Counted from the stretch's first letter, positions 3,301-36,454 are shown. The stretch is 36,454 nucleotides of DNA from a virus (IMGVR_UViG_3300045988_081733:1-36454); one strand, 5' to 3'. A program made the numbers and translations. Notes: generated from the letters alone by a model not told the origin.

Positions 3301-3493
3301 AGCGAGATATTGCGCAACGTGCGGAAAAGAAATCGAAAAAAGTTATATCAAGGTTTTAGACAATTATCTGCAAGTCAAGTATTTTGATTCCGATGAAATC
3401 AATTGCTTTTGTTGCAATGAATGCTTGTGCAAATTCATTAGCGCGAAAGAAATTTATCTTGACGAAGAAGAAAGCAAGAGGGACGAAGAATGA
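3293..3493 (+). CDS. Zinc-ribbon-like small protein (66 aa)
   Basis: RBS GAGGAG. CATCGK...CFCCNECLC motifs. Confidence 0.6.
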   Translation: MSEARYCATCGKEIEKSYIKVLDNYLQVKYFDSDEINCFCCNECLCKFISAKEIYLDEEESKRDEE

Positions 3494-3810
3494 CTGATAT
3501 CGAAAAAGAAGTGTTCAAATGCTTCTGTCGCTTATATCTTGATGTTATGAATTATAACACAAAATTATTTCCGTCAACCGTCATCGCGACAATCTTTGAA
3601 ATATCACTGTACAAGGCGCGGAAAATTATCAAAACGCTTGTGAACGAAGGATTGCTTCAGAGCGGCTGTGATTCATGGTATGACGATTATTGCGAACAGC
3701 AAATTATTGCGAGAGGGTACACAATAACCGAAAAAGCAAAGCAGACAGACATTTTCAAAGAAGCTGAAGAAGCTGAAGAGAAATTGAGAAAAGAAATATG
3801 GGGGTTCTGA
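3490..3810 (+). CDS. Hypothetical protein, possibly winged-helix (106 aa)
   Basis: ATGA overlap with the upstream gene and compact operon packing. Confidence 0.6.
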   Translation: MTDIEKEVFKCFCRLYLDVMNYNTKLFPSTVIATIFEISLYKARKIIKTLVNEGLLQSGCDSWYDDYCEQQIIARGYTITEKAKQTDIFKEAEEAEEKLRKEIWGF

Positions 3811-4185
3811 ATGAATAACACTTGTGTTATGTGCGGGAAAATCATTCCTGAAGGGTTGCAAGTCTGCCCGATGTGCGCCGCTGTCGCAAGAAATGAATCA
3901 TATAACCGTTTAACGATTGCGATCAGAGCATTCACAGAAGCGTGTCACGCGATCGGGCTTGATTCCGCTTTACCGAAAAAGCGGGGAGGACAGTTGTATT
4001 ATACAGCATATCGAAATTACTTTCAGACGAATGTCGATGATGAAAAATGGCAGTTGCTTGAACGTCAGGGATATGCGAAACACGGCGAAGTCAGCGAAAG
4101 CGGAATGACATATTATCACATGACAAGACGCGGTCTTGACTTTATGGAAAGCATCTTAGGGATAAAAATTGAAGAATTGGAGTGA
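3811..4185 (+). CDS. Hypothetical protein with an N-terminal zinc ribbon (CVMCGK...CPMC)
   Basis: The ORF abuts the upstream stop codon. CxxC-N12-CxxC motif. Confidence 0.6.
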   Translation: MNNTCVMCGKIIPEGLQVCPMCAAVARNESYNRLTIAIRAFTEACHAIGLDSALPKKRGGQLYYTAYRNYFQTNVDDEKWQLLERQGYAKHGEVSESGMTYYHMTRRGLDFMESILGIKIEELE

Positions 4186-5048
4186 TGACAATGGCTGAAG
4201 TGAAATGGATAAAGATCGTGACGGACATATTTGACGATGAAAAAACGCTTTTAATCGAAAGTATGCCCGAATCAGACAGCATAATTGTGATATGGTTCAA
4301 GCTGTTGTGTATGGCGGGGAAGATGAATAATAACGGCGTTTTCGTCATGAACAACCGCATTCCGTATACAGATGAAATGCTTGCAACGGTTTTCAGAAGA
4401 CCGCTGAACACTGTTCGTCTTGCATTAGCAACGTTTGAACAGTACGGCATGATTAAGATTGTCGATAACGTTGTTACAATTCCGAATTGGGAAAAACATC
4501 AAAACATTGACGGGCTTGAAAAAATGCGGGAGCAGAACCGCAAACGGGTTGCGGCATACCGTGAAAAACAAAAACTTCTTGCCGCAAAACAGAATGAAGA
4601 AAGCGGGAAAAATCAATGTAACGTTACTGTACAAAAAAGTAACGCAATAGATAAGAATAAGAATAGAATAAGAGAAGATAAGAATATATATACACAAATC
4701 AAAGATTTGTATAACGAAACTTGCGTTTCGTTCCCACGTCTGACTGTTCTTTCAGACAAAAGAAAACAGGCAATAAAAGCGCGGTTGAACGTTTACACTG
4801 TCGATCAGATGAAAGCCGTTTTTGAAAAGGCTGAAGCAAGCACGTTTCTGAAGGGCGGTAATAATAGAAATTGGTCTGCAAATTTCGATTGGCTTCTGAA
4901 AGACAGCAATTTCGCGAAGGTGCTTGACGGGAATTATGACGATAAATTCAGCACATACAGCGGATATCAGAAGCCCGTGGAGCAGAGCAACAATATTTTC
5001 GCTGATATGTTGCGAGAGGGAGAGGGCGAACCGAATGAACGTTACTGA
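4182..5048 (+). CDS. Phage replisome organizer (DnaD / SPP1 G38P-like N-terminal domain)
   Basis: The N-terminus VKWIKIVTDIFDDEKTLLIESMPESDSIIVIWFKLLCMAGKMNNNGVF is typical of Phage_rep_org_N. The likely true start is the ATG at 4191, with RBS TTGGAG. Confidence 0.75.
   Translation: MMTMAEVKWIKIVTDIFDDEKTLLIESMPESDSIIVIWFKLLCMAGKMNNNGVFVMNNRIPYTDEMLATVFRRPLNTVRLALATFEQYGMIKIVDNVVTIPNWEKHQNIDGLEKMREQNRKRVAAYREKQKLLAAKQNEESGKNQCNVTVQKSNAIDKNKNRIREDKNIYTQIKDLYNETCVSFPRLTVLSDKRKQAIKARLNVYTVDQMKAVFEKAEASTFLKGGNNRNWSANFDWLLKDSNFAKVLDGNYDDKFSTYSGYQKPVEQSNNIFADMLREGEGEPNERY
4649..4693. repeat. AT-rich AAGAAT iteron cluster inside the organizer gene, a candidate replication origin
   Basis: AGATAAGAATAAGAATAGAATAAGAGAAGATAAGAATATATATAC, preceded by the palindrome GTAACGTTAC. 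Calling it an origin is inference. Confidence 0.4.
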
Positions 5049-6011: not shown

Positions 6012-6384
6012 TTATTTCGCGATTTTCGCGCAGTTGCCGTCACTGAATGAATATACTGCGGCTTGTCGTTCGCACTGGAGCAAAGGCGCGGAATTCAAGA
6101 AATCAATTGAAAGTCTGATCGGCTTCAGCATTCGCCAATCAGTGAACAAAGGAACACTGAAGCCGATTGACACGCCGTGTGAAGTACATATCTTTTGGCA
6201 CGAAGCAACGAAACGCCGAGACTGCGACAACATTCAGAGTGCACAGAAATTTATTCTTGACGCGCTTCAGCACTTCGGAATCATAAAGAACGACAGCAGA
6301 AAATATGTGAAGCAGATCAGACACGAAATTGTTGACGATAAAAAAGATTTCGTCATTGTCGAATTGAAAGAGGTGAAATCATGA
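5938..6384 (+). CDS. rusA: RusA-family Holliday junction resolvase
   Basis: LPSLNEY...RSHW...RRDCDNIQSAQKFILDAL...GIIKNDS matches the RusA motifs. There is no in-frame ATG. The proposed start is the TTG at 5938, 7 nt after AGAGGGA, which overlaps mazG by 74 nt. The start codon is uncertain. Confidence 0.65.
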   Translation: MKESCLKNTNTTRQDHTSTAVNEYNYFAIFAQLPSLNEYTAACRSHWSKGAEFKKSIESLIGFSIRQSVNKGTLKPIDTPCEVHIFWHEATKRRDCDNIQSAQKFILDALQHFGIIKNDSRKYVKQIRHEIVDDKKDFVIVELKEVKS

Positions 6385-7415
6385 AACACACAAAATCTGA
6401 TTTGCTACAAATGCAATCTTTGCCGTTAAGCGCAAAAGTGATAATGACAAAACGGCGTATAAAAGATTGGTATGACTATTGGGACGGTCAAGTGTACGTT
6501 TCTTTTTCAGGCGGCAAAGACAGCACGGTTCTTTTACACATTGCCCGTGAAGTATATTCGGATATTGAAGCTGTATTTGTAAACACGGGGCTTGAATATC
6601 CCGAAATACAGTCATTTGTCAAAACGTTTGACAACGTGACAATTTTGCGTCCGAAAATGCGTTTCGATGAAGTAATAAAAAAATTCGGATATCCAATGAT
6701 AAGCAAGGCGGTCGCGAATTGCATTGTCGGAGCAAAGAGAAATCCCAACGGGGTAAAATATCAACAGCTATGCGGCGAATATGTTACCAACGGCAAATTG
6801 TCGATGTTCAATTATGGCAAATATAAACCTTTGCTTGATACTGATTTCAATATCACGGACGAATGCTGTAAAATCATGAAAAAAACACCGATGAAAGCAT
6901 TTCACAAGCAAATCGGGAAATATCCCATAATTGCAACAATGGCTGACGAAGGCGAACAACGTAAAATGTCATGGTTTCGCGGCGGCTGTAATTCTTTCGA
7001 TTCAAAAAATCCGCGATCAGCACCAATGTCATTTTGGACGGAACAAGACATATTGAAATACATAAAAGAAAACGAAATTCCGATTGCGTCCGTTTATGGC
7101 GATGTGGTTTATAAAGATAATCCCGATCAGATAAAAATAGATGATTTCGGGATTGACAGCGGCGCACAGTATCAAACAACGGGTTGCAATCGAACTGGCT
7201 GTATTTTTTGCGGCTTCGGATGTCATCTTGAAAAAGAGCCGTCCCGCTTCCAACGGCTGAAGAAAACACACCCGCGACAATACGATTATTGTCTGAACGG
7301 CGGTGAATACGATGAAAACGGCGTTTGGAAGCCGAACAAAGCAGGGCTTGGAATGCGTCACGTTTTCGATGAACTGAATAAAATTTACGGCGAAGATTTT
7401 ATCAAATACAAATAA
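6381..7415 (+). CDS. PAPS-reductase-family PP-loop protein (DndC / IbrA-like) with a C-terminal Cys cluster
   Basis: SFSGGKDS PP-loop near the N-terminus. C-terminal TGCNRTGCIFCGFGCH cluster. ATGA overlap with rusA. Confidence 0.75.
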   Translation: MKHTKSDLLQMQSLPLSAKVIMTKRRIKDWYDYWDGQVYVSFSGGKDSTVLLHIAREVYSDIEAVFVNTGLEYPEIQSFVKTFDNVTILRPKMRFDEVIKKFGYPMISKAVANCIVGAKRNPNGVKYQQLCGEYVTNGKLSMFNYGKYKPLLDTDFNITDECCKIMKKTPMKAFHKQIGKYPIIATMADEGEQRKMSWFRGGCNSFDSKNPRSAPMSFWTEQDILKYIKENEIPIASVYGDVVYKDNPDQIKIDDFGIDSGAQYQTTGCNRTGCIFCGFGCHLEKEPSRFQRLKKTHPRQYDYCLNGGEYDENGVWKPNKAGLGMRHVFDELNKIYGEDFIKYK

Positions 7416-9712: not shown

Positions 9713-11563
9713 ATGAAAAAGATAATCGCGATAGTTTCAGCAGTAATTTTATTATTTTTGATAATTGGGGTAGGAATCAAAATGAGTGAAAGAACATATA
9801 ACGTTGTTTGTCTTGACGGTTGTCTTTTTGAATCGATGACAAAAGAACAGATCATCGCGGCGATTGCCGAAGCAACGGGAAACACACCGACAAGCATTGA
9901 TGACGCTTTTATCACGAAAATCAAAGAGCAGAACAACGAAAAATCAATAAAGCTGTGGATTGGTACACAGGCACAGTATAACGCACTTGTCGCGGCGGGG
10001 ACTGTCGCGAATGATACGATTTATTGCACTTCGGACGGCGATAGACTGACGCTGATTGAAGAACAGCTTCAGGAGACAAGCGACACTGTCGATCAGTTAA
10101 TGTGTCGGTTCGGGGTGTGCAATACAAATTATTTTCTTGCTGAAAAGGCTGTAACATTACCCGAATTTGAACTGACGGCGGGCGCGATAATCGGCGTGCA
10201 ATTCAAATACATGAATCGGGCAAATGCGCCGCTGTCGCTGAACGTCAACGGCACGGGAGCAAAAACAATAAAAGATTGCTACACGGGAAATAATGCGGCA
10301 AAAGAATGTATCAAAGGTTTTGACGCTGTCCATCTCTTTCAGTATGACGGCGAAAATTGGGTGATACTGAATCCGAATGTTTCCGTTGCCGCTTTTCAGA
10401 TCGGAGATATCAAGCAGAGTGTAAACGGGAACGCGGGTTCTGATTGGCTTGAATGTGACGGTTCAAAAATTGACAAGTCGGAATATTCGGCACTTGCAAA
10501 CATTTTGTCAGCGAATTGGTATAATAACGCCGCTGATTCTAAAACGCTCGGACTGAATGAAACGCTGACGGGCATTATCTATGACGAAAGCAATGAAAAA
10601 TATATTGCTGTCGGATATGATTCATCATATAAAGCGATTATATATTCATCTACAACGGGAATCAAAAATCTTGCGAAAGATACAAGCATTGACGTTCAGA
10701 TGACATTGCGAGATATCATTGATAGCGGTGAATATTACGTTGCTTGCGGCGGTTTAACGCCGAATTCAAATCAGATTCTTTATTGCAAGTCAAACGCCAC
10801 AACGCCGAATTGGAGCGCAAAGCAGTTGACAGCAAATTCGGCTATGATGTGGGGCATTGCATACGGCATTGACAACGGAAAAAAATGTTATGTTGCGTGC
10901 GGTCAGGAATCGTCAAAAGCGGTTCTGTATTATGGAACAAGCCCGCTGAATGATTGGACGAAGGTTGAAGTCACAAACGGCACTTTTTACAGCATAGTCA
11001 GAGCAAATGACGCATGGTATGCTGTCGGTTCAGACGCTGACGGACACCCGATTATATACACTGCAAGCAGTGTGTCGGGAACATGGACACAGCTATTCAC
11101 CGATTCAACGCAATCGATAACCCTGAAAGATATCGCGATTGTTTATGATTCAATTATTGTTTGCGGTATGAACGAAACAGCGGGCTATATTATAGCAAGC
11201 AATGATGACTTTGCAACGCATACAGTCAAAGAAATTTCAGGGGCTTCGTTCAACGGGGTGACTGCTTTCGATTATGAAACGGTTATCGTTTGCGGAACAG
11301 ATACTGACAGCGATTCAAAGAAAGTCAATGTTTTGTATTACAGCAAAACACCGACAGCCGCTGACAGTTGGCAAAGAAAAGCGATTGCAACAAGCACAGT
11401 AAACGGAACGGAAGTTTTGAATGATGTCAAAGAAGCCGAAGGAAATGTTATCATGATCGGCGTACATGACACAGTAGCGGTTTCATATGAAATCGACACG
11501 GCTGTTCTTCCCGATCTGAATGACGGCACGACAAACATCAAATCTTTCATTCTTGCAAAATAA
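9713..11563 (+). CDS. Tail-fibre-like protein: possible N-terminal TM anchor, fibre N-motif, tail-collar-like motif and a C-terminal 6-7-bladed beta-propeller-like repeat region
   Basis: MKKIIAIVSAVILLFLIIGVGIK hydrophobic N-terminus. KLWIGTQAQYNAL...NDTIYC. GDIKQS...WLECDGSKIDKSEYSALANIL (collar-like). Repeats occur about every 45 aa: YIAVGYD, YYVACGG, CYVACGQ, WYAVGSD, IIVCGMN, VIVCGTD, VIMIGVH. An alternative start at 9782 would remove the TM segment. Confidence 0.6.
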   Translation: MKKIIAIVSAVILLFLIIGVGIKMSERTYNVVCLDGCLFESMTKEQIIAAIAEATGNTPTSIDDAFITKIKEQNNEKSIKLWIGTQAQYNALVAAGTVANDTIYCTSDGDRLTLIEEQLQETSDTVDQLMCRFGVCNTNYFLAEKAVTLPEFELTAGAIIGVQFKYMNRANAPLSLNVNGTGAKTIKDCYTGNNAAKECIKGFDAVHLFQYDGENWVILNPNVSVAAFQIGDIKQSVNGNAGSDWLECDGSKIDKSEYSALANILSANWYNNAADSKTLGLNETLTGIIYDESNEKYIAVGYDSSYKAIIYSSTTGIKNLAKDTSIDVQMTLRDIIDSGEYYVACGGLTPNSNQILYCKSNATTPNWSAKQLTANSAMMWGIAYGIDNGKKCYVACGQESSKAVLYYGTSPLNDWTKVEVTNGTFYSIVRANDAWYAVGSDADGHPIIYTASSVSGTWTQLFTDSTQSITLKDIAIVYDSIIVCGMNETAGYIIASNDDFATHTVKEISGASFNGVTAFDYETVIVCGTDTDSDSKKVNVLYYSKTPTAADSWQRKAIATSTVNGTEVLNDVKEAEGNVIMIGVHDTVAVSYEIDTAVLPDLNDGTTNIKSFILAK

Positions 11564-11581
11564 GTGAAAGGGGAAAACATC

Positions 11582-12379
11582 ATGCGAGTTATTACAGCAT
11601 ATGCGGAAAAGAATCCGTGTTATAAAGCGGCACAGAAAATGCCGAAAGGAAAGCCCGAAGGAATCGTTGTTCATTCAACGGGCGCGAACAATCCAAACTT
11701 AAAGCGATATGTTGACTGTCCTGAAGAAGTCGGGAAAAATCTTTTCGGAAATCATTGGAACAGAAATGTCAAGAAATGCGTTCATGCTTTCATCGGCTAC
11801 GACAAAAACAAGACGGTCGCTGTTGCGAACATCCTGCCATATGATGTTTGCTGTTGGGGTGTAGGAAGCGGCGCGAAAGGTTCATACAATTACAATCCCG
11901 CATACATACAGTTTGAAATCTGCGAAGACAATCTGAAGAACGAAACATATTTCGATGACGCATTTGAAGCGGCTGTCGAATATTGCGCGTTTCTGTGCAA
12001 AAAATTCGATATTCCCGTTGACAAGATTGTTTCGCATTACGAAGCGGGAAAAGCGGGCTTCGGTTCGCTTCACGCCGATTGCGATCATTGGTTGAAAAAA
12101 TTCGGCAAGTCAATGACATGGTTCAGGGCGCAAGTCAAAGCAGAACTTGAAAAGACTGAAGTGAAAGAACAGCCGTTCACGGCGTACAGAGTGAAAGTCA
12201 CTGCAAGTGTTCTGAATATCCGCAAGGGCGCGGGGACGAATTACAAAGTCAGTGGTCAGATCAGAAGCAAAGGCGTTTTCACAATTGTCGCAGAAGCTGA
12301 CGGCAAGGGCGCGACAAAGTGGGGAAAGCTGAAGTCGGGCGCGGGTTGGATATCGCTTGACTATGTGAAAAAGCTGTAA
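11582..12379 (+). CDS. Endolysin: N-acetylmuramoyl-L-alanine amidase (Amidase_2/PGRP-like) with a C-terminal SH3-like wall-binding domain
   Basis: GIVVHSTGANNP...HAFIG...C-terminal YRVKVTASVLNIRKGAGTNYKVSG...GWISLDYV (SH3_3 pattern). RBS AAAGGGGAAAA. Confidence 0.8.
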   Translation: MRVITAYAEKNPCYKAAQKMPKGKPEGIVVHSTGANNPNLKRYVDCPEEVGKNLFGNHWNRNVKKCVHAFIGYDKNKTVAVANILPYDVCCWGVGSGAKGSYNYNPAYIQFEICEDNLKNETYFDDAFEAAVEYCAFLCKKFDIPVDKIVSHYEAGKAGFGSLHADCDHWLKKFGKSMTWFRAQVKAELEKTEVKEQPFTAYRVKVTASVLNIRKGAGTNYKVSGQIRSKGVFTIVAEADGKGATKWGKLKSGAGWISLDYVKKL

Positions 12380-12392
12380 AGGGCTGATATAT

Positions 12393-13091
12393 TTGTTTAC
12401 TACTCTTTCACAATTCTACACTTCGCAAGAATGGCGGCAGTTTCGTCAGCAGTTAATTGCGGAGCGTATCAACAAGGCTGACGGCATTCTGTATGATGAA
12501 TTCAATCATCAACCGATTGTCAACGCTTATGACATTGTTCTTCACCATATCACACCGCTGACACTTTCAAATGTAAATGATTACAGTGTTTCACTGAACC
12601 CGCAAAACATCATGATTGTGTCACAGCGATCACATAATGAAATACATAAGCGGTTCGGACATTGTACCGAACGAAAAGTATATTATGTGTATGGTGCGCC
12701 GTGTAGCGGCAAAACATCATTCGTTAATGGTATCAAGGGCAATTCTGATATTGTGCTTGATATAGATAATATATGGCAGTGTATCACGGGCGGCGAAAGA
12801 TATTTCAAGCCTGTCGCGCTGAAACAGAACGCATTTGAATTGCGTGACTGTTTAACGGACATGATACGAACCCGCGCGGGAAAATGGGAACGCGCATTTG
12901 TGATTGAAAGCGGCGCACGAAAAGCAGAGCGGCAACGCAGAATTCAGCTTCTCGGTGCTGAACCGATTCACATTGACACAGACAAAGACACTTGTCTGAA
13001 ACGGCTTGCAAATGACGCGAATCGGGCGGCAGTGCAAGACGAATGGCGAAAGTATATTGAATCATATTTCAATGACTTTCAAGCCGATTAA
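12393..13091 (+). CDS. HNH endonuclease fused to a P-loop NTPase/kinase-like domain
   Basis: N-terminal half: EWRQFRQQLI...VLHHITPL...NPQNIMIVSQRSHNEIH (HNH). C-terminal half: VYGAPCSGKTSFV (Walker A). TTG start with an AAGGG RBS. Confidence 0.7.
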   Translation: MFTTLSQFYTSQEWRQFRQQLIAERINKADGILYDEFNHQPIVNAYDIVLHHITPLTLSNVNDYSVSLNPQNIMIVSQRSHNEIHKRFGHCTERKVYYVYGAPCSGKTSFVNGIKGNSDIVLDIDNIWQCITGGERYFKPVALKQNAFELRDCLTDMIRTRAGKWERAFVIESGARKAERQRRIQLLGAEPIHIDTDKDTCLKRLANDANRAAVQDEWRKYIESYFNDFQAD

Positions 13092-13390
13092 TTTGCGTCA
13101 ACGGGTTACTCCTCCGACCCTTGACATATAGGCTTTCCTTTCTTTTAGCCGCTGGCATATCGGCAATAATAATATGCCGCCTTTCTGAAAAAAATATTTG
13201 CAGTCTGAAAAAAGTTTTCTGAAAAAAATATCCCCCCGTTAAAAAATTTTTTTCAAGTCTGATTTCAACTGTGACCGGCTCTTCTTTTGCGCACGAACCA
13301 AAAAAATCAGATTTTCTGAAATCTTTTCGGGGAACTTTTGAAAAAATAGACGCGCTTTGAAAATTACGAAAATACATAGAGGTAAATGAG
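13092..13390. other. A-tract-rich non-coding region with TCTGAAA(AAA) repeats, a candidate cos or packaging-initiation region
   Basis: TCTGAAAAAA at 13184, 13204 and 13218, with variants at 13258 and 13315. An A6T7 block at 13241. Hairpin GGCATAT-N11-ATATGCC. It sits between the HNH gene and P27-like terS, as in HK97-type cos phages. Confidence 0.4.
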
Positions 13391-13585
13391 ATGACAAGGA
13401 AAGAAGCAACAGCGATTATTTATGATATTGTCAACAGCGGAATTCTTGACGAAGGACTTGAAGAAGGTCTGACGGAAATCTGCGAACACATTTGCACAGA
13501 TGATTTTGAACTGTGCGCCACTTCTGACGATTACCCGAATTATTGCGAAGGGTGTGAATTTGAATGTCCAAATCAGAGGAACTGA
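13391..13585 (+). CDS. Hypothetical acidic Cys-containing protein (64 aa)
   Basis: RBS AGAGGT 7 nt upstream of the ATG. Confidence 0.55.
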   Translation: MTRKEATAIIYDIVNSGILDEGLEEGLTEICEHICTDDFELCATSDDYPNYCEGCEFECPNQRN

Positions 13586-13869
13586 AAGCATTCTTTCAAA
13601 ACATTGATGATGATAAAAAACAATTCGCATATGACGCGATTGACGAATACTGTTTTTTCATCGACAGAATTCAGGAATTGCGCAAACTGCCGTTTATACG
13701 GGTAAGTAAAAGCAATCCCGAAAGACAAGAACTGACACCCGCCGCAAAGCTGATAAAAGAGTATTCACAAGCCGTTGACAATAAGCGCAAAACACTGCTG
13801 ATGATTCTTTATCGCGTGGAGAACAGCGCGGCAGACGATCTGCTTGCAAAGCTATCTGAATTTGAATGA
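13564..13869 (+). CDS. terS: Putative small terminase subunit, P27-family-like
   Basis: AYDAIDEYCFFIDRIQEL...NPERQELTPAAKLIKEY resembles the P27 TerS core. The position (after the putative cos, with an HNH gene and a Terminase_1-type TerL) fits. Confidence 0.5.
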   Translation: MSKSEELKAFFQNIDDDKKQFAYDAIDEYCFFIDRIQELRKLPFIRVSKSNPERQELTPAAKLIKEYSQAVDNKRKTLLMILYRVENSAADDLLAKLSEFE

Positions 13870-13882
13870 AAGGGGAAAGAAA

Positions 13883-14350
13883 ATGCAAATCAAAGATATT
13901 GCAATTGATGAATTGAAAGTTTATGAGAATAACCCGCGTTTCAATAATAATGCCGTTGAAGCTGTTGCGAATTCAATCAGTGAATTCGGCTTCAAAGTGC
14001 CGATTATCATTGATAAAGATAATATCATTGTTGCAGGACATACCCGATTAAAAGCGGCACAGCGTTTAGGCCTTGAAACTGTTCCTTGCATTGTCGCGGA
14101 CGATCTGACACCCGAACAGATAAAAGCGTTTCGTCTTGCTGATAACAAAACAGCCGAACTTGCGGAATGGGACTTTTCAAAACTTGAAGAAGAACTTGAA
14201 GATTTGAAAATGAATTTTGATATGTCCGAATTCGGATTTGTTGACAACAGCAACGGTCGCGATTTGGAACAGTCACCCGATGAATTTGAAGAATACGGCG
14301 AAGACATCAAGACAGAACACAAATGCCCGAAATGCGGCTATGAGTGGTGA
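13883..14350 (+). CDS. ParB-like nuclease-domain (ParBc) protein with a C-terminal zinc ribbon
   Basis: IDELKVYENNPRFNNNAVEAVANSISEFGFKVPIIID...IVAGHTRLKAAQRLG is the classic ParB N-terminal domain. The protein ends HKCPKCGYEW. RBS AAAGGGGAAAG. Confidence 0.8.
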   Translation: MQIKDIAIDELKVYENNPRFNNNAVEAVANSISEFGFKVPIIIDKDNIIVAGHTRLKAAQRLGLETVPCIVADDLTPEQIKAFRLADNKTAELAEWDFSKLEEELEDLKMNFDMSEFGFVDNSNGRDLEQSPDEFEEYGEDIKTEHKCPKCGYEW

Positions 14351-14356
14351 CAACAA

Positions 14357-15442
14357 ATGAAGCCCGAATATAAAGTGCCGACAATGAAAGAAATCGAATC
14401 ATTGCCGAAGAACGGCTTCAAGGTTGTTTCAACCTTCAGCGGCGGCGGGGGTTCTTGTCTCGGTTATAGAATGGCGGGTTATGATGTGGTATATGCAAAT
14501 GAATTCGTTGAGGAAGCGCAAAAGACGTATCGAGCGAATCACAGCGCATATCTTGATACCCGTGATATTCGTCAGGTAATGCCCGAAGACATTCTTGAAA
14601 TCACAGGTCTGAAGCGTGGCGAACTTGATTTATTTGACGGGTCACCGCCTTGCTGTGCTTTTAGCACAGCGGGAAGCCGTGAAAAAGGATGGGGCGAAGA
14701 AAGAAGTTATTCGGACGGCAAAAAGCAACGTGTCGATGACTTATTCTTTGAATATACAAGGTTGCTGAAGGGATTGCAACCGAAATGTTTTATTGCTGAA
14801 AACGTTTCGGGGCTTGTGAAAGGTAAAGCAAAAGGATATTTCAAACTGATTCTTCAGGAACTTAAAAATTGCGGGTACTTCGTGCGGGTGCAGTTATTAA
14901 ATGCGCAGTGGCTCGGCGTTCCGCAGAATCGACAGCGCGTTATTTTTCATGGTGTGCGAAACGACTTGAATCTTGCGCCAGTGTTTCCGAAGCCGTTTAA
15001 TTATTATTACACGCTTGCAGACGCTTTCAAAAATCTTCCCGAAAGCAATGCGCAAGAAGCGCAGGAACGCGCAGAAGCAATCAAAGAATATTCCGTTTAT
15101 CGCGTCATGCAACGAATATCGAAGAATCCCAATAGACCGATTGCGGGCGATCCTTTGAAAAAGAATTCGCGTTTCAATTTAATTCGTCAGTCTTGGGATT
15201 ATCCGTGTTCAACAGTTTGTCAGACGGGAAATGACGGCTGTGCAAGCGTCTTTCATCCGTCAGAAGATCGAAAGTTTACTATCAGCGAACTGAAGCGCAT
15301 AACAAGCATTCCCGATGATTTCATTCTGACGGGTACATTCGCGCAACAGTGGGAACGGCTCGGCAGAATGGTGCCGCCCGTCATGATGAAGAATATTTCT
15401 GAAACGATTGCGAGGGAAATTCTATGCAAGACAAAGTCATAA
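14357..15442 (+). CDS. DNA (cytosine-5) methyltransferase-family enzyme with an atypical motif X (GR instead of GN)
   Basis: Motif I FSGGGGSCLGY, motif IV GSPPCCAFS, motif VI ENV, motif VIII QNRQRV, motif IX RKFTISELKRITSIPDDF, and motif X LGRMVPP. Confidence 0.85.
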   Translation: MKPEYKVPTMKEIESLPKNGFKVVSTFSGGGGSCLGYRMAGYDVVYANEFVEEAQKTYRANHSAYLDTRDIRQVMPEDILEITGLKRGELDLFDGSPPCCAFSTAGSREKGWGEERSYSDGKKQRVDDLFFEYTRLLKGLQPKCFIAENVSGLVKGKAKGYFKLILQELKNCGYFVRVQLLNAQWLGVPQNRQRVIFHGVRNDLNLAPVFPKPFNYYYTLADAFKNLPESNAQEAQERAEAIKEYSVYRVMQRISKNPNRPIAGDPLKKNSRFNLIRQSWDYPCSTVCQTGNDGCASVFHPSEDRKFTISELKRITSIPDDFILTGTFAQQWERLGRMVPPVMMKNISETIAREILCKTKS

Positions 15443-16113
15443 AACACGGCAAATGGGAATTTGACGAAGACGTGACGAAAGTCTTTGATGATATGCTTCA
15501 GCGATCAATTCCCGAATATGAATCAATGCGCGATCTGATATACAGAGTGGGTCGGAATTTCGTAAACAAAGACAGCACATTGATTGATTTAGGCTGTTCA
15601 CGCGGCGAATCGTTCAGACGCTTTGCGGCTGATGGTGTAAAGATAATCGGCTGTGAAGTCAGCAAGCCGATGATTGAAGCGTGTCGCATGACATACGAAG
15701 ATTTTTCAAATGTGGCCGTTGTCGATATGGATATCAAGAAAGACTTTCCGAAAGAACGCGCAGATTTGACGCTGTCTGTTCTGACACTGCAATTCATTCC
15801 GATTGAATACCGACACGACATTCTTCGCAGGATATATGAAAATCTGAACGAACACGGCGCGTTCATTCTTGTTGAAAAGGTTCTCGGCAACAGCGCAGAT
15901 GTCGAACGCATTCTTGTTGACACATACTATTCAATAAAGAGCGATCACAGATACACGCAGGAGCAAATCGAAAGCAAGCGAAAAGCCCTTGAAGGCGTTC
16001 TTGTTCCGATAACATCAAAGTGGAATGAAGAAATGCTTTACAATGCGGGCTTCAAAACGGTTGACGGCTTTTGGCGTTGCTGTAATTTCTGCGGGTGGCT
16101 TGCGCTGAAATGA
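15424..16113 (+). CDS. CmoA-like carboxy-S-adenosylmethionine synthase homolog (class I SAM-dependent MTase fold)
   Basis: Collinear by eye with E. coli CmoA: WEFDEDVTKVFDDMLQRSIPEY / DLGCSRG / LTLQF / IESKRKALEGVL / YNAGF / CCNFCGWLALK. RBS GAGGGA. Overlaps the MTase gene by 19 nt and terL by ATGA. Confidence 0.75.
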   Translation: MQDKVIKHGKWEFDEDVTKVFDDMLQRSIPEYESMRDLIYRVGRNFVNKDSTLIDLGCSRGESFRRFAADGVKIIGCEVSKPMIEACRMTYEDFSNVAVVDMDIKKDFPKERADLTLSVLTLQFIPIEYRHDILRRIYENLNEHGAFILVEKVLGNSADVERILVDTYYSIKSDHRYTQEQIESKRKALEGVLVPITSKWNEEMLYNAGFKTVDGFWRCCNFCGWLALK

Positions 16114-17771
16114 AAACATATCTTGAACAGTATCACGATTTAATCACAAGCGGGGATATTGTCGCGGGGTATTGGATTAGAAAAGAAGTCGAAAATCTGA
16201 TTGAAGACTTGAACAATCCGCTTTACATATATGACACGACAGAAGCGCACAAGCGAATCAGATTTATTCAATCGATGTGCTTGCAGTCGAAACACCCGTA
16301 TTTCAACAAGCCCGTTCAATTAATGCCGTTTCAGCTTGCATTCTATGAAGCGTTGTACAGCTTCAAGATGACTGACACGGGCTTCAGGCGATTTGTCGAA
16401 GCACTGCTTGAAATCGGACGAAAGAACGGCAAAAGCACATTTCTTGCGGCTGACGGAAACACAGATTTGTTTATCGGCGAAGGCGGCGTTGAAATCTGTT
16501 GCGCGTCCAATGATGATAAACAGTGCCGTTATATATGGCGCGAAATCGCGGGAATGCGTCAGCGTCTTGACCCGAAGAAAGCAATCACAAGTCAGAACCT
16601 TTCCGAAATCCGAAACGACAGAAAAAATGTCATTATCAGCCGTATGTCAAGCAAAACGCAAAACAAAGACGGCGGCAATTATACAAAGACATATCAAGAC
16701 GAAAGTCACGATGTCGATGAAGAAAACGGAAACTGTGAAATCGCTGAAAGCTGTTGGCGCGGAATGTCAACCAAAGACGAACCGCTTTTCATAAATTGCA
16801 CAACGCAGGGCTTCAGCCGTGACGGGTGCTATCTTGATAAGAAGATCGAACGCGCAAAGAAGATAATCGAAGGCGAAATTGATGACATTCATTTTCTGCC
16901 GTTCCTCTTTGAGCAGGACAGCGAACAAGAGATATGGCAGGATGAATCATCATGGGAAAAAAGCAATCCTTCATTGCGTTACGGCGTGAAGAAAATCGAA
17001 AAACTGCGGCGAGATGTTGACATCGCGAGAACCGACAAAGCCGCGCGTCTGCATTTGCTTTGCAAAGATTTCAACATCAAGCAGAACAGCGCGGAAACAT
17101 GGCTGAAACTTGAAGATTTCACATATCCGCAAAAGAAACTTTCGCTTGAAGATTTTCGCGGTTGTGTATGCTTGGCGGCTTTAGACTGTTCGCAGACAAC
17201 CGACTTGACAAATCTAAAATTGTTGTTTATGCGTCCGAACGATAACACGAAATACGTGTTTTCGCATTATTGGATTCCCGAAAGCAAGCTGACCGACAGC
17301 GCGGACAGAAGCGCAGGCGCACAGTATAAAGAATGGGCGCAAAAAGGATATATGACGATCTGTTCGGGCAGTATCATTGATTTGACGCTTGTCACAGAAT
17401 ACATTGTCAAGCTGAAAAAGCAATACGGAATCACGGTTCTGAAATGCGGATATGACAAAGCATATGCGCGAGAGTTTGAAAAGAGCATTGACGAAGTTTC
17501 GGACGAAATACGCGAAGCGATCAATCAGAAGACAATGTCAACGCCTATGAAATGGGCTGAACGGGATTTCACAAGTCATGTGATTAACTTCGGAAGCAAC
17601 CCCGTTGACGAATGGTGTCTGTCGAATGCTTGCTGTAAGGTTGACGGACACGAAAATTATTCTTGTGTCAAGTCGCAAGCAAGCAAGCGAATTGATGGCG
17701 CGGTCGTGTTCATCATTCTGTATGCGACTTTGCTGAAATTCAATTCAGATTTTCAGCGTTATATCAAGTAA
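16110..17771 (+). CDS. terL: Terminase large subunit (Terminase_1 / HK97-type)
   Basis: Walker A EIGRKNGKST, typical size and position upstream of the portal gene. ATGA coupling to the upstream gene. Confidence 0.85.
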   Translation: MKTYLEQYHDLITSGDIVAGYWIRKEVENLIEDLNNPLYIYDTTEAHKRIRFIQSMCLQSKHPYFNKPVQLMPFQLAFYEALYSFKMTDTGFRRFVEALLEIGRKNGKSTFLAADGNTDLFIGEGGVEICCASNDDKQCRYIWREIAGMRQRLDPKKAITSQNLSEIRNDRKNVIISRMSSKTQNKDGGNYTKTYQDESHDVDEENGNCEIAESCWRGMSTKDEPLFINCTTQGFSRDGCYLDKKIERAKKIIEGEIDDIHFLPFLFEQDSEQEIWQDESSWEKSNPSLRYGVKKIEKLRRDVDIARTDKAARLHLLCKDFNIKQNSAETWLKLEDFTYPQKKLSLEDFRGCVCLAALDCSQTTDLTNLKLLFMRPNDNTKYVFSHYWIPESKLTDSADRSAGAQYKEWAQKGYMTICSGSIIDLTLVTEYIVKLKKQYGITVLKCGYDKAYAREFEKSIDEVSDEIREAINQKTMSTPMKWAERDFTSHVINFGSNPVDEWCLSNACCKVDGHENYSCVKSQASKRIDGAVVFIILYATLLKFNSDFQRYIK

Positions 17772-17786
17772 AAGGAGATATCAAAA

Positions 17787-18362
17787 ATGCCTATTTATTA
17801 TCAGGGAAAAGAACTCGGAAACATGGAAGTTAATCAAGTTGATTATGTTCTTCCTGCGGCAACCGATTCTGTTTTTGGCGGTGTCAAAATCGGTGACAAT
17901 ATAAATGTTGATGAGGATGGAACAATAAGCATTGACCGCGCGGGCGGTTGGCGGCTGATTAACACTGTTGAAATAACCGAAGAAATAAGAACAATCGAAA
18001 TCACAGAAGATTCAGAGGGAAATCCATTTGCGGTCAAAGAATTGCACATAATCGGGGAAGGAATTACCGCAAAAGAATCAATGTCGATATATTTGTGTTT
18101 TAATTCATCTTTTCCTTGGTATACGAATAACGCACAAGTAGGCGCATTTGACACAAAAGCAGAATATTGGGATTTCTATACTTTTCCTGCGGGAATAAGA
18201 TCATATTTTTCATGTATTAACACATGGAACACAGGTGCTTTGAATTACATACGCGGTAATAATAATGATATTCCGAATGACACAATATCATATATCAGAT
18301 TTATGGCTCCATATACTGAATCAAGATTTACTGCGGGAAAAATGACAATATACGGGAGATAA
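17787..18362 (+). CDS. Hypothetical protein with a tail-fibre-type N-terminal motif, inserted between terL and the portal gene
   Basis: RBS AAAGGAG. LPAATDSVFGGVKIGDNINVDEDGTISI resembles the ATxxxxG(I/V) motif of fibre proteins. Confidence 0.6.
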   Translation: MPIYYQGKELGNMEVNQVDYVLPAATDSVFGGVKIGDNINVDEDGTISIDRAGGWRLINTVEITEEIRTIEITEDSEGNPFAVKELHIIGEGITAKESMSIYLCFNSSFPWYTNNAQVGAFDTKAEYWDFYTFPAGIRSYFSCINTWNTGALNYIRGNNNDIPNDTISYIRFMAPYTESRFTAGKMTIYGR

Positions 18363-18366
18363 GACA

Positions 18367-18540
18367 ATGAAAAAATGGATTAATGGAAAAATTGTTGAGA
18401 TGACCGCCGAAGAAGTCGCGGCAATGGAAGCGGAAACCGCACAGCCCGAAATCGAACAGCACGCAGAACTGACAACCGAAGAACGGATTGCAAATCTTGA
18501 AGAAGCACTGAACATGATTCTGAACGGGGTGACGGAATGA
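18367..18540 (+). CDS. Small hypothetical protein (57 aa, MKKWINGKIVEMTAEE...)
   Basis: Translated by hand. Fills the gap between neighbouring genes and has an ATGA overlap with the next ORF. Confidence 0.5.
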   Translation: MKKWINGKIVEMTAEEVAAMEAETAQPEIEQHAELTTEERIANLEEALNMILNGVTE

Positions 18541-18737
18541 CAGACGAACTGCGGAAAAGAATCATCGAATATAACAAATCGGTGAAAGCGAAAGACAGCC
18601 GCATTGAAGAACTGAAAGCAGAGATTGAACAGCGATCAGAGACAATGCGAACGATTGCGAATTCTTTTTCAAATACGTTATGGAATGCGTTGCCGCAGAA
18701 AATCAAGGCGTATTTTGAAGAATATCGAAACACTTAA
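18537..18737 (+). CDS. Hypothetical coiled-coil protein (66 aa)
   Basis: Translationally coupled ORF. Confidence 0.5.
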   Translation: MTDELRKRIIEYNKSVKAKDSRIEELKAEIEQRSETMRTIANSFSNTLWNALPQKIKAYFEEYRNT

Positions 18738-18764
18738 AGTCAGGCACAGTGAGAAGGTGAGAAA

Positions 18765-19967
18765 GTGGGGCTGAAAGAATTTTTCTTCGGCAAAAAGAAA
18801 GAGAAAAGCGGGCTTCGATACGCGCCGACAATGTCAGGGGCTTCGCCGTTTTATTCCTCTTTCGGGGATAATATATATTCAAGCGATATTGTCGTTCAGT
18901 CGATCAGATGTAAAGCGAACGAATTCAAGAAACTGCAACCGCGTCACATTCGCACTGTGGACGGGAAACAAAGCGTAATACTTGACAGCAGTATTTCAAA
19001 GGTTCTGAACCGCCCGAATCCGTACATGACAACGGCTGACTTCCTTGAAAAAATAACAATCCTGCTTGAACTGAACAAGAATGTTTTCATTTATCCCGAA
19101 TACTACAAGACCAAAGGCGGCGAAAGATACTATACAGCATTGTACCCGCTGAAGCCGTCAACGGTTGACTATCTTGCAAACGATAACGATGAAATGTTCA
19201 TTCATCTTGCGTTTGCGAACGGGGTTGAAACGACACTTCCCGTTGATGAAATAATTCATTGGCGCAAAGACTACGGCGTGAATGATTATTTCGGCGGCAG
19301 TATGTTCGGCGGCAATGATAATATCGGACTTCTGAAAACTTTGCGTCAGTATGATATGTTGACGCAGTCAATTGCGAAAGCCCTTGACTGTTCGTGTCAG
19401 ATAAACGGGCTTGTCAGATACAATTCATATCTTGATGACGATGAATCAAAGAAAGCGCGTGAAAACTTTGAAGCCGATCTGAAGAACAACAAAAGCGGGA
19501 TAATGTTCACGGACTTGAAAACAGATTATGTTTCAATGCCGCGTGACATTAAACTTGTTGACGGGGAAACGACAAAGTTTTTCTATGAAACTATTCTTCG
19601 GGCGAACGGCACAAGCCTTGCAATCCTGAACGGCGATTATACCAAAGTGCAGAAAGAAGCGTATTATGAACACGCACTTGAAGCGGACATCAAAAGTTTA
19701 GGTCAGGCAATGTCGCGCGTTATGTTTTCAGAACGGGAAATAGCTTTCGGAAACGAAATCATTCTGTACCCGCACGACATAACATTCATGTCGATGGAAA
19801 ACAAATTGTCTGCGCTTCAAATCGGACTTCCCGCAGGGATTTTCACGAAAGACGAAGCGCGTGAATTGCTCGGATATGCGCCGTTGCCGAATGGCGCAGG
19901 GGACGCAATCCCGCAGGGCTACAATTCATTACTTGACGATTCAAACAACAATAGTCTGAAAGATTAA
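18765..19967 (+). CDS. Portal protein, HK97 family
   Basis: About 400 aa, positioned after terL. The N-terminal region ...IYSSDIVVQSIRCKANEFKKLQPRH... is typical of Phage_portal. GTG start with a GAAGGTGAG RBS. Confidence 0.8.
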   Translation: MGLKEFFFGKKKEKSGLRYAPTMSGASPFYSSFGDNIYSSDIVVQSIRCKANEFKKLQPRHIRTVDGKQSVILDSSISKVLNRPNPYMTTADFLEKITILLELNKNVFIYPEYYKTKGGERYYTALYPLKPSTVDYLANDNDEMFIHLAFANGVETTLPVDEIIHWRKDYGVNDYFGGSMFGGNDNIGLLKTLRQYDMLTQSIAKALDCSCQINGLVRYNSYLDDDESKKARENFEADLKNNKSGIMFTDLKTDYVSMPRDIKLVDGETTKFFYETILRANGTSLAILNGDYTKVQKEAYYEHALEADIKSLGQAMSRVMFSEREIAFGNEIILYPHDITFMSMENKLSALQIGLPAGIFTKDEARELLGYAPLPNGAGDAIPQGYNSLLDDSNNNSLKD

Positions 19968-27310: not shown

Positions 27311-28186
27311 ATGCTTAAACTTGATTTTATATCGGCAAGGGGCGATGTCCTGCCCCTTGTCGGCAACGATAAATTTGACTTAATCAACATTGACGGTCAG
27401 ACGCAGTCAACAGCTTCGTTGTCAAGTCTTGTGATAGGCGGCGTTGACGGCGATCAGGTCAATAATGCACAGGCACAGCCCCGCACGATAATCTTTGATT
27501 TGCGTATCAAAAGCGGGGTAAATGTCGAAGAAGCAAAGCGGCATATCTTGCAGTATATCAAGATCAAGCAGAAATCTTCGCTGAAGTGGACGCAGAATGA
27601 CAGAACGGTCATTCTTTCGGGCTATGTCGAAAATATCACAATGCCCCGATGGAGCAAAGCTGTCACAATGCAAGTACAGCTTCACTGCGATCATCCGTTT
27701 TGGGAAGATATCGACTTTGTCGTTCAGACTATCAGTGAAGCAATAAATCATCATTACTTCACAACAAATCTGAATGATATGCTGTACTTTCCCGAAACGG
27801 GAATTGTTATCGGAGAGTATGACACGATCAGAACGAAGCGTTTTTTCAATGATGGCGATGTCGCTGTCGGTCTTGATATCGTAATCAATGCAATTGCAAC
27901 GGTCACAAATCCGATTATCTATGACGAAAGCGGCAATTTCTTCGGTGTAGGTTACGGAGAAGCAGAACATCAGCTTGTCATGGAAGTCGGGGACATTGTT
28001 TCGATATCAACGCACAAGGGAAACAAGGTCGTGACGCTGAACGGGGTGAATATCTTTGACAAGATAAAGCCAAATTCAACATGGCTTCAGCTTCAGAGCG
28101 GCGAAAACCTTTTTTCAATCAACAGTGACGATGACAGCACAACGAATATGTATTTCAATTTGAGTTATAAACAGAGGTATGTATAA
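27311..28186 (+). CDS. Distal tail protein (Dit, Sipho_tail family)
   Basis: Position directly after the tape measure. N-terminus MLKLDFISARGDVLPL...DGQ, typical of Dit. Confidence 0.7.
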   Translation: MLKLDFISARGDVLPLVGNDKFDLINIDGQTQSTASLSSLVIGGVDGDQVNNAQAQPRTIIFDLRIKSGVNVEEAKRHILQYIKIKQKSSLKWTQNDRTVILSGYVENITMPRWSKAVTMQVQLHCDHPFWEDIDFVVQTISEAINHHYFTTNLNDMLYFPETGIVIGEYDTIRTKRFFNDGDVAVGLDIVINAIATVTNPIIYDESGNFFGVGYGEAEHQLVMEVGDIVSISTHKGNKVVTLNGVNIFDKIKPNSTWLQLQSGENLFSINSDDDSTTNMYFNLSYKQRYV

Positions 28187-34822: not shown

Positions 34823-34977
34823 ATTTGTGCATACCATAGAAAATACATTTTGTCAACAAAAAGATGACAAAATGTATTGACAATGCGGTGAAAACCTGAT
34901 ATAATTATATACGTAAAAGAGAGATACCCCGCAGGGTATTCAAACGAAGCTGTGACAGCGGCTGAACGGTCAGAAAG
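34823..34977 (+). repeat. Duplicated operator/promoter/leader cassette, second genomic copy
   Basis: 34844..34977 matches 1..134 at 132 of 134 positions. About 20 further nt of weaker similarity lie upstream, compared with 36355..36375. Confidence 0.9.
34844..34905 (+). promoter_or_regulatory. Early operator plus consensus promoter (copy adjacent to the repressor gene)
   Basis: Identical to 1..62. Confidence 0.8.
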
Positions 34978-36375: not shown

Positions 36376-36454
36376 TACATTTTGTCAACAAAAAGATGAC
36401 AAAATGTATTGACAATGCGGTGAAAACCTGATATAATTATATACGTAAAAGAGA
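36376..36454 (+). repeat. Exact repeat of nt 1..79 (operator plus promoter), marking a circular closure or terminal redundancy
   Basis: 79 of 79 positions identical to the window start. Confidence 0.95.

Follow-up and report, generated by a model that had tools for sequence, protein, structure and literature searches.

A probable ParB–CmoX–CmoA DNA carboxymethylation cassette in the genome of a temperate siphovirus of gut Clostridia

Natural 5-carboxymethylcytosine (5cxmC) was described in December 2025 for the CmoA/CmoX/CmoY system of Synechococcus phage S-B43 (Yang et al., Nat Commun 2025; PMC12783734). In that system, phage CmoA makes carboxy-S-adenosylmethionine (Cx-SAM), and SpCmoX (Protein Data Bank (PDB) entry 8YF3) writes 5cxmC at GpC. 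Wild-type SpCmoX accepts only Cx-SAM, not S-adenosylmethionine (SAM). SpCmoX R350 contacts the Cx-SAM carboxylate, and replacing it (R350N) abolishes activity. Cleavage by HhaI is blocked by 5cxmC. CmoY joins glycine to 5cxmC, and in S-B43 virions the glycine amide was detected while free 5cxmC was not. The same study counted 5,615 homologues carrying SPPC and the arginine, 4,257 of them with CmoA, 2,251 with a ligase and 1,660 with ParBc (PMC12783734). The other literature that we found concerns engineered enzymes only. Here we describe positions 13883..16113 of the viral sequence IMGVR_UViG_3300045988_081733:1-36454 (36,454 nt; hereinafter, the window means this whole stretch). The segment is very probably a ParB–CmoX–CmoA DNA carboxymethylation cassette, carried by the complete genome of a temperate siphovirus of gut Clostridia, as judged from sequence comparison and structure prediction. 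The idea of carboxymethylation is already published, and the window is a fresh member of the CmoA–CmoX family. A first-pass annotation had nevertheless arrived at this recently discovered chemistry by reading sequence alone, proposing that the phage makes its own Cx-SAM and uses an arginine-type C5-methyltransferase to carboxymethylate its DNA.

All four genes of that annotation are present: a ParB-like gene, a C5-methyltransferase homologue, a CmoA homologue and the large terminase subunit gene (terL). The open reading frames (ORFs), motifs, ribosome-binding site, gene overlaps and ParB-like neighbour that it quoted could all be verified in the sequence. The features of the cassette are as follows.

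13883..14350, + strand: ParB N-terminal-domain protein, 155 aa (PF02195, 7e-10; PHROG 620, 8.6e-58; PHROG 498, 2e-45)
14357..15442, + strand: CmoX, predicted Cx-SAM-dependent DNA cytosine C5-carboxymethyltransferase, 361 aa (PF00145, 6e-57; PDB 8YF3, 1.6e-81)
15412..15417, + strand: Shine-Dalgarno-like GAGGGA for cmoA, inside the 3' end of cmoX (read from the sequence)
15424..16113, + strand: CmoA, predicted carboxy-SAM synthase, 229 aa (TIGR00740, 2.3e-51; PHROG 4752, 1.5e-75)

The likeness of CmoX to C5 methylases is beyond chance: it matches Pfam PF00145 (C-5 DNA methylase) with E = 6e-57 and covers the whole profile. Its motifs are FSGGGGSCLGY (residues 27-37), GSPPCCAFS (95-103), ENV (148-150), QNRQRV (190-195), RKFTISELKRITSIPDDF (305-322) and LGRMVPP (335-341). 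A canonical SAM-dependent C5 methyltransferase has PCQ in motif IV and GNxVP in motif X; CmoX has PCC and GRMVP at these places. Specifically, motif IV reads PPCC, with the catalytic Cys99 followed by Cys100 in place of Gln, as the first-pass annotation had pointed out. In a HMMER alignment to M.HaeIII, ...ERLGRMVPP of CmoX falls on ...KMIGNAVP, and Arg337 sits on the motif X Asn.

In a search of PDB sequences, the best match to CmoX is 8YF3, with E = 1.6e-81 and 43% identity (query residues 2-358, chain residues 2-371). The second-best match is M.HaeIII (1e-30), and 4DKJ matches CmoX residues 89-204 only (E = 1e-6). R337 corresponds to SpCmoX R350, as counted from the ends of the 8YF3 alignment, and a separate MAFFT alignment agrees. 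The SpCmoX contacts F25, E47, F48, D69, C98 and R350 are all conserved, as CmoX F27, E49, F50, D70, C99 and R337, respectively. An AlphaFold2 model of CmoX, built from 32 relatives, has a pLDDT (predicted local distance difference test) of 86.5 and a pTM (predicted template modelling score) of 0.88, and is weak solely in the catalytic loop, residues 100-112. The top Foldseek match of the model is again 8YF3 (template modelling scores 0.82/0.89), listed there as a DNA cytosine C5-carboxymethyltransferase complexed with Cx-SAM. The claim that the motif X Asn is replaced by Arg is upheld: the arginine lies on the Asn of the M.HaeIII GNAVP and on the SpCmoX residue that holds the cofactor carboxylate. 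R337 is unchanged in all 31 aligned relatives.

The second departure, in motif IV, recurs among relatives. Among the 120 closest, the residue after the catalytic Cys is C in 107, S in 11, A in 2 and Q in none; in the 30 genome loci described below and in phage homologues it is C, S, A, K or F. In M.HhaI, the transferable group is flanked by Gln82 of motif IV and Asn304 of motif X, and with the Q82A change methylation falls while larger groups are preferred (Lukinavičius et al., NAR 2012; PMC3526304). Replacement of the motif IV Gln is a consistent trait of the family and, by analogy, would give space for the carboxymethyl group. PMC12783734 contains no discussion of the residue after the catalytic Cys.

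The CmoA ORF matches NCBIfam TIGR00740 with E = 2.3e-51 and 174.8 bits over 232 of the 239 profile positions. It also matches the crystal structures 1IM8 (8e-38) and 4GEK (1e-33), aligning end to end with H. influenzae and E. coli CmoA, and the earlier identification of this 229-aa protein, made by eye, stands. We compared its residues with the Cx-SAM contacts of E. coli CmoA (EcCmoA) taken from Byrne et al. 2013. R186 corresponds to EcCmoA R199, the Arg that binds the Cx-SAM carboxylate. The cofactor residues Y32, D55, G57, S59, D103, I104 and F124 are conserved, and E78 stands for Asp. In a MAFFT alignment, SpCmoA (L001 2497-3192) and the TurkishDelight homologue (L002 6581-7363) are without Arg at the EcCmoA R199 column; the residues there are E188 and A212, respectively, with Lys or Arg adjacent. 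The cause is either a shift in the alignment or a genuine difference in the way phage CmoA proteins hold the carboxylate.

CmoA could in principle serve mainly another role, namely draining host SAM as an anti-defence measure, like SAM lyases, or making tRNA cmo5U (uridine 5-oxyacetic acid) through a host CmoB. Modification of tRNA is the classical role of CmoA, and SAM depletion by CmoA was raised as an open question by the S-B43 authors (PMC12783734). Within the window, cmoA overlaps cmoX by 19 nt, and elsewhere cmoA and the Arg-type enzyme co-occur throughout. As the first-pass annotation had stated, the window lacks CmoB: no CmoB-like or further methyltransferase-fold ORF was found among its other scanned ORFs. 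Gram-positive bacteria make mo5U (5-methoxyuridine), not cmo5U, and are generally without cmoA and cmoB, which counts against a tRNA role. A SAM-draining side effect is compatible with DNA carboxymethylation and is no replacement for it. We regard a main role outside DNA modification as extremely improbable.

The pairing of CmoX with CmoA recurs elsewhere. In a scan of one genome per species, we found 30 loci encoding relatives of the window CmoX, in at least five phyla. A CmoA-like gene lies downstream of the CmoX homologue in all 30, sometimes with an Asn-synthetase-type ligase between them, and a ParB homologue lies upstream in 28. The synteny extends to phages S-B43, TurkishDelight and PaBG. 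The gene order in TurkishDelight is ParB, ParB, CmoX, a glutamine-amidotransferase ligase and CmoA. In Pseudomonas phage PaBG (L041 2674-6637) it is ParB, CmoX, CmoA (annotated as tRNA cmo5U34 methyltransferase), one more gene and asparagine synthase. In Mcat8 it is ParB, CmoX, a weakly CmoA-like gene, a small ORF, terminase and portal. As controls, we used the Asn-type phage C5-methyltransferases of CL131, TPDSL_ph1, phi3T-SPbeta, L087 and L110, all of which keep PCQ. None of the three control neighbourhoods examined (CL131, TPDSL_ph1 and phi3T-SPbeta) has a CmoA neighbour. The co-occurrence that the first-pass annotation had suggested looking for is found with the Arg-type enzyme, in 30/30 loci against 0/3 for the Asn type.

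These data bear on the simplest alternative, in which CmoX is an ordinary SAM-dependent orphan methylase making 5-methylcytosine (5mC), the CmoA-like gene encodes an unrelated small-molecule or RNA methyltransferase, and the Arg is incidental. Orphan C5-methyltransferases are common in phages; Pfam sees the second protein only as a generic Methyltransf_11/25, and its CmoA score falls under the equivalog cutoff (see below). Against this, the Arg is unchanged across the clade and SpCmoX, which has the same Arg, refuses SAM; both pocket residues depart from the canonical Gln and Asn; and the CmoA-like partner, with the Cx-SAM carboxylate-binding Arg kept, is found in about 30 independent loci, whereas Asn-type controls are without such a partner. 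An ordinary 5mC methylase is therefore very unlikely.

The ParB protein matches PHROG 498, a DNA methyltransferase family with a 633-position profile, at profile positions 33-172. ParB domains of a similar kind are also fused to other DNA methyltransferases of phages or encoded ahead of them.

Three further groups of loci were seen in the course of the survey. In a third class of C5-methyltransferase homologues, the motif X position is occupied by Met (…GMSVPP) or Leu (…GLMVAP), and PCQ is replaced by SPPCS or SPPCP. Its members include L059 3172-4224, L062, L069, L035 (Flavobacterium phage FpV9) 3441-4508, L036 (Bacteroides LoVEphage) 3408-4514 and L038 (Melnitz-3) 3396-4613. The methyltransferase gene follows a ParB-like gene in L059, L062 and L069, which are sibling phages; the class is without a nearby CmoA gene and would have been excluded by the Arg filter of the 2025 survey. 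Verrucomicrobiota hold many ParB–CmoX–CmoA-like trios, including at least six loci in one metagenome-assembled genome (L009-L011, L019, L022, L025) and the loci L027, L031-L033, L023 and L024. Verrucomicrobiota CmoX proteins have a longer target-recognition region, and the L032 and L033 frames are seemingly broken by insertions of ~1 kb and 2.2 kb; the multiple copies suggest a repeated mobile element or prophage family. Erwinia phage vB_EamM_Alexandra (L037 2142-4271) and more than 40 related jumbo phages encode an Arg-type domain (…LGRICVP, SPPCF) within a 709-aa protein. No CmoA gene lies within 3.5 kb of this gene, and host CmoA may supply Cx-SAM to the enzyme.

The proposed mechanism of the window cassette is as follows. 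By homology to the E. coli and S-B43 enzymes, CmoA would convert host SAM and prephenate into Cx-SAM. CmoX would flip the target cytosine out of the DNA, Cys99 would attack C6, and the carboxymethyl group of Cx-SAM would be moved to C5, giving 5cxmC. To judge from the 8YF3 structure and from the engineering of the M.HhaI pocket, Arg337 of motif X would hold the cofactor carboxylate, while the small Cys100, in place of the motif IV Gln, would give room to the larger group. The 5cxmC would likely protect the phage DNA from host restriction, as was shown for SpCmoX against HhaI. This reading is supported because the same mechanism has been shown experimentally for S-B43 (PMC12783734), and the match to 8YF3, the correspondence of R337 to R350, CmoA R186 and the synteny all argue for phage-made Cx-SAM being used by an Arg-type enzyme to make 5cxmC.

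Several points weigh against DNA carboxymethylation as described. First, the CmoA score on TIGR00740 is 18 bits short of the equivalog cutoff of 193.3 bits. Taking this to mean that the protein is not a CmoA was ruled out: the biochemically validated SpCmoA scores far lower, at 115.6 bits, and the relatives of loci L004 and L005 score ~150; the cutoff is tuned to bacterial orthologues and is no functional limit. Second, conservation of the CmoA cofactor residues, expected by the first-pass annotation, holds for R186 and most other Cx-SAM contacts and fails at the EcCmoA contact residues N90 and N132, both of which are Val in the window protein; these are also non-Asn in the validated SpCmoA. 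Third, the activities of CmoX and CmoA are here predicted from sequence and modelled fold, and a host supply of prephenate is assumed. The remaining points concern the DNA target. The target-recognition region of CmoX can be aligned with that of SpCmoX but is 25% identical, compared with 51-63% for the catalytic parts, and the GpC specificity of SpCmoX therefore cannot be assumed. If the target were GpC, the would-be targets in the genome would be 2,328 GpC steps, or 29% of all cytosines. The genome also strongly avoids several restriction words containing GC (observed/expected GGCC 2/68, GCAGC 0/84, AAGCTT 0/16), which would be needless if every GpC were protected.

The avoidance of restriction-type words is broader than that. 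Relative to a Markov expectation, the observed/expected counts are 3/137 for CCGG, 2/68 for both GGCC and CGACG, 2/47 for GATGC, 0/84 for GCAGC with its complement GCTGC, 0/22 for GACGCC, 0/20 for GCGCGC, 0/16 for AAGCTT and 0/14 for CAGCTG. CCNGG and GGNCC are each absent, with ~84 expected at zero order, and GCGC, CGCG and GCSGC are not avoided. Because restriction-type words are so strongly avoided, the phage does not rely on modification alone. The GpC-containing words among them argue against blanket GpC protection, or suggest that the cassette was acquired recently or that the avoidance is a host-derived signature. The sibling L004 avoids other words, namely CGCG, AGCT, GATC, CCGG and GGCC. 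We also considered reading the CmoX target from word avoidance and rejected this, as the avoided sets differ between the window, L004 and L005, with no consistent protected word.

The fate of 5cxmC depends on whether a ligase follows. With the SpCmoY and TurkishDelight ligases as tblastn queries, nothing better than E = 4 was found in the closed genome, and the scanned window ORFs contained neither an Asn_synthase domain nor another ligase candidate. The CmoA–CmoX–CmoY pathway to 5-glycylcarboxymethylcytosine (5gcxmC) thus lacks its CmoY component in the closed genome. We therefore predict that modification stops at bare 5cxmC and does not proceed to the glycine amide seen in S-B43.

The closest CmoX relative, with 72% identity, lies on a Ruminococcus sp. 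contig (JAZLGM010000062, a metagenome-assembled genome; L005 9089-10836), where two genes separate cmoX from cmoA. One encodes a 299-aa protein with a faint ornithine-cyclodeaminase/mu-crystallin match, and the other a CmoY homologue of the Asn-synthase type (308 aa); the pair may direct another kind of amide hypermodification. The window itself encodes, at 6381..7415 in the replication module, a PP-loop (SFSGGKDS) protein that resembles 3'-phosphoadenosine-5'-phosphosulfate (PAPS) reductases and is DndC/IbrA-like, with a C-terminal Cys cluster (CNRTGCIFCGFGC). The possibility that this protein is a hidden counterpart of CmoY was set aside, since it is unlike both ligase types, belongs to PHROG 424 and is unlinked to CmoX elsewhere, and it is kept only as a low-probability rival.

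In that rival, 5cxmC is merely an intermediate, which an unlinked enzyme (the 6381..7415 protein or a host ligase) modifies further. Such a step would be in keeping with the L005 locus, with its CmoY homologue and 299-aa gene between cmoX and cmoA, and with the S-B43 virions, which contained the glycine amide and no detectable 5cxmC. The PP-loop protein, with its SGGKDS motif and Cys cluster, belongs to the adenine-nucleotide alpha-hydrolase superfamily, broadly shared with asparagine synthetase, and has a homologue of 57% identity in L005. Yet neither SpCmoY nor the TurkishDelight ligase has detectable likeness to any window ORF, and PHROG 424 is a phage PAPS reductase family of the auxiliary metabolic gene category, with no link to CmoX. 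The PP-loop gene stands 7 kb off, in another module, and a homologue is found near CmoX in only one of the 30 loci; moreover, a ligase is present on fewer than half of CmoX contigs (2,251/5,615; PMC12783734). On this evidence, further modification by an unlinked enzyme is unlikely, and bare 5cxmC remains the end product that we predict.

We next consider the phage and the place of the cassette in it. An exact 79-nt terminal overlap (1-79 = 36376-36454) indicates a circularly closed genome of 36,375 bp. It encodes helix-turn-helix regulators, a single-stranded DNA-binding protein (SSB), a replisome organiser, a G39P-like loader, RusA and the PP-loop protein, followed by a tail-fibre-like protein, an amidase endolysin, an HNH/P-loop protein, the small protein orf101, the cassette and TerL; the structural and other genes comprise portal, protease, capsid, tape measure, Dit, Tal with a GH25 domain, and a serine recombinase. 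Because of this gene set, the phage is a temperate siphovirus. The closest TerL relatives are 80-84% identical and come from contigs of 30-40 kb that were assigned by binning to Acutalibacteraceae, Christensenellaceae and further gut Clostridia. An identical CmoX protein is present in a European Nucleotide Archive (ENA) metagenome assembly, sample ERZ28629149, and no match was found when 24 kb of the window was compared by megablast with 50,697 phage records. The packaging genes around the cassette are as follows.

12393..13091, + strand: HNH endonuclease / P-loop (AAA_33) protein (PHROG 4581, 1.7e-38, labelled 'terminase small subunit'; HNH PHROGs; Pfam AAA_33)
13564..13869, + strand: orf101, 101 aa, positional candidate for the small terminase subunit (terS), from its place upstream of terL in sibling phages
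16110..17771, + strand: large terminase subunit TerL (PF03354, PF20441)

In sibling phages (TerL 46-84% identical), the order is HNH, orf101, TerL and portal, with orf101 ending at the start of terL. HNH/P-loop homologues lie ~1 kb upstream of terL and are the conserved first gene of the packaging block. The first-pass annotation had placed the module between terS and terL. Sibling synteny agrees with this placement, and the terS part of the claim is weaker: orf101 has no Pfam or PHROG match and is a candidate terS by position. None of the sibling phages compared has the 2.2-kb cassette at the orf101–terL junction, where it lies in the window. On the closest sibling contig, JAZORX010000096 (L004/L043), it lies ~4.5 kb upstream of the HNH gene. 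Because it occupies these two different sites, the cassette appears to be mobile. A count of cassette–terminase adjacency by tblastn, with three TerL/portal queries, scored five lineages, the terminases being too diverse for such queries.

The junctions of the cassette are tight. The start of cmoA overlaps the stop of cmoX by 19 nt, which suggests translational coupling, and the GAGGGA at 15412-15417 lies 6 nt before the cmoA ATG at 15424. The cmoA TGA (16111-16113) in turn overlaps the terL ATG at 16110, as ATGA; this TerL start is backed by alignments of sibling-phage TerL proteins, which begin at residues 1-4 from that ATG. A promoter/terminator scan of 11500-19000 gave counts not above those of shuffles and so no usable operon boundaries. 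The tight overlaps, together with the lack of promoter or terminator signal above background in that region, would fit co-expression with the packaging genes. Given the cmoX/cmoA/terL overlaps and the position of the block between the positional terS and terL, late expression with the packaging genes is therefore most likely, and replicated DNA would be modified before packaging.

Other features of the genome were seen alongside. A second insertion relative to the siblings L043-L072, of ~1 kb, lies between TerL and portal (17787-18737) and holds orf191 and two small ORFs. A 100-nt element occurs twice, 1.5 kb apart and 98% identical, with one copy at 34823-34922. In each, a 21-nt inverted repeat (TACATTTTGTCA…TGACAAAATGTA) precedes a promoter of consensus form (TTGACA / TATAAT), and the two are probably copies of an operator-promoter unit from the early or lysogeny region. 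The tail-associated protein at 28186-30051 has an N-terminal GH25 muramidase domain fused to Sipho_Gp37, and a separate amidase/SH3 endolysin is encoded at 11564-12379.

The window is distinguished by three marks: it has no ligase, the cassette is inserted between terS and terL, and the target-recognition domain is diverged. It is a compact addition to the CmoA–CmoX family, with three ligase-free genes in a phage of human-gut Clostridia. We put forward a combined proposal tentatively, leaning slightly against all of its parts holding at once: that virion DNA ends in bare 5cxmC, at a target other than GpC; that replacement of the motif IV Gln by Cys, Ser or Ala is an obligatory second determinant beside the Arg; and that the cassette is mobile into the terS–terL site. 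As to the first part, the negatively charged 5cxmC has so far been detected in recombinant systems only and in no native virion; as to the second, the motif IV change is not discussed in published work as a further determinant of Cx-SAM use. Were the finding confirmed, the phage would offer bare 5cxmC DNA from a natural source, and its enzyme might be a carboxymethyltransferase of new sequence specificity, useful for sequencing and labelling methods in which engineered CpG enzymes are now employed. The 2025 paper had already raised the questions of what ParB does, how far specificities range and how prephenate is supplied, and the window opens none beyond these.

Compared with S-B43, the window likewise has a CmoA homologue beside a C5-methyltransferase homologue with SPPC and the motif X Arg (R350 in S-B43, R337 here). 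All Cx-SAM contacts of SpCmoX are kept in a full-length match of 43% identity, and the association with ParBc is also noted in that paper. The two systems differ in that the window is without the CmoY amide ligase, so that bare 5cxmC is predicted instead of 5-glycylcarboxymethylcytosine. The gene order is ParB–CmoX–CmoA in the window and CmoA–CmoY–CmoX in S-B43, and motif IV is PPCC in the window CmoX and PPCS in SpCmoX. The window phage is a temperate siphovirus that has a genome of 36 kb, belongs to gut Clostridia and carries the cassette between terS and terL, whereas S-B43 is a 214-kb cyanomyovirus; with the target-recognition domain 25% identical, GpC is not assured as the target.

The first-pass annotation had cited an engineered M.MpeI with a basic residue for the motif X Asn, and N374K is borne out by PMC12783734. 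In this enzyme, of the CpG type used in DM-seq and CMD-seq, a basic residue in place of the motif X Asn likewise leads to use of Cx-SAM and formation of 5cxmC (PMC12783734). M.MpeI N374K is a laboratory single mutant of a CpG methyltransferase, with the rest of the SAM pocket kept; the window CmoX is natural and distant by sequence, as the short 4DKJ match indicates, has Arg and not Lys, and has lost the motif IV Gln as well. The M.HhaI variant Q82A/Y254S/N304A (PMC3526304) is altered at the same two pocket positions that are naturally Cys100 and Arg337 in CmoX. It works with synthetic propargylic cofactors and has Ala at both positions, whereas CmoX has a charged Arg that would select for the carboxylate.

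The bacterial CmoA/CmoB system for tRNA cmo5U (4GEK and 4IWN, E. coli CmoA; 1IM8, H. influenzae YecO) shares with the window the fold and length of CmoA, the Arg (R199 / R186), the N-terminal FDE…VF.DM.QRS.P.Y block and TLQF. Unlike that system, the window is without CmoB, the predicted acceptor is DNA cytosine and not tRNA ho5U (5-hydroxyuridine), and its CmoA scores slightly below the equivalog cutoff, with N90 and N132 replaced by Val. The ParB-linked orphan methyltransferases of phages resemble the cassette through the PHROG 498 match, and in sibling phages ParB-like genes also precede C5-methyltransferases that are not CmoX; in the window, ParB is a separate 155-aa protein, here paired with a predicted carboxymethyltransferase.

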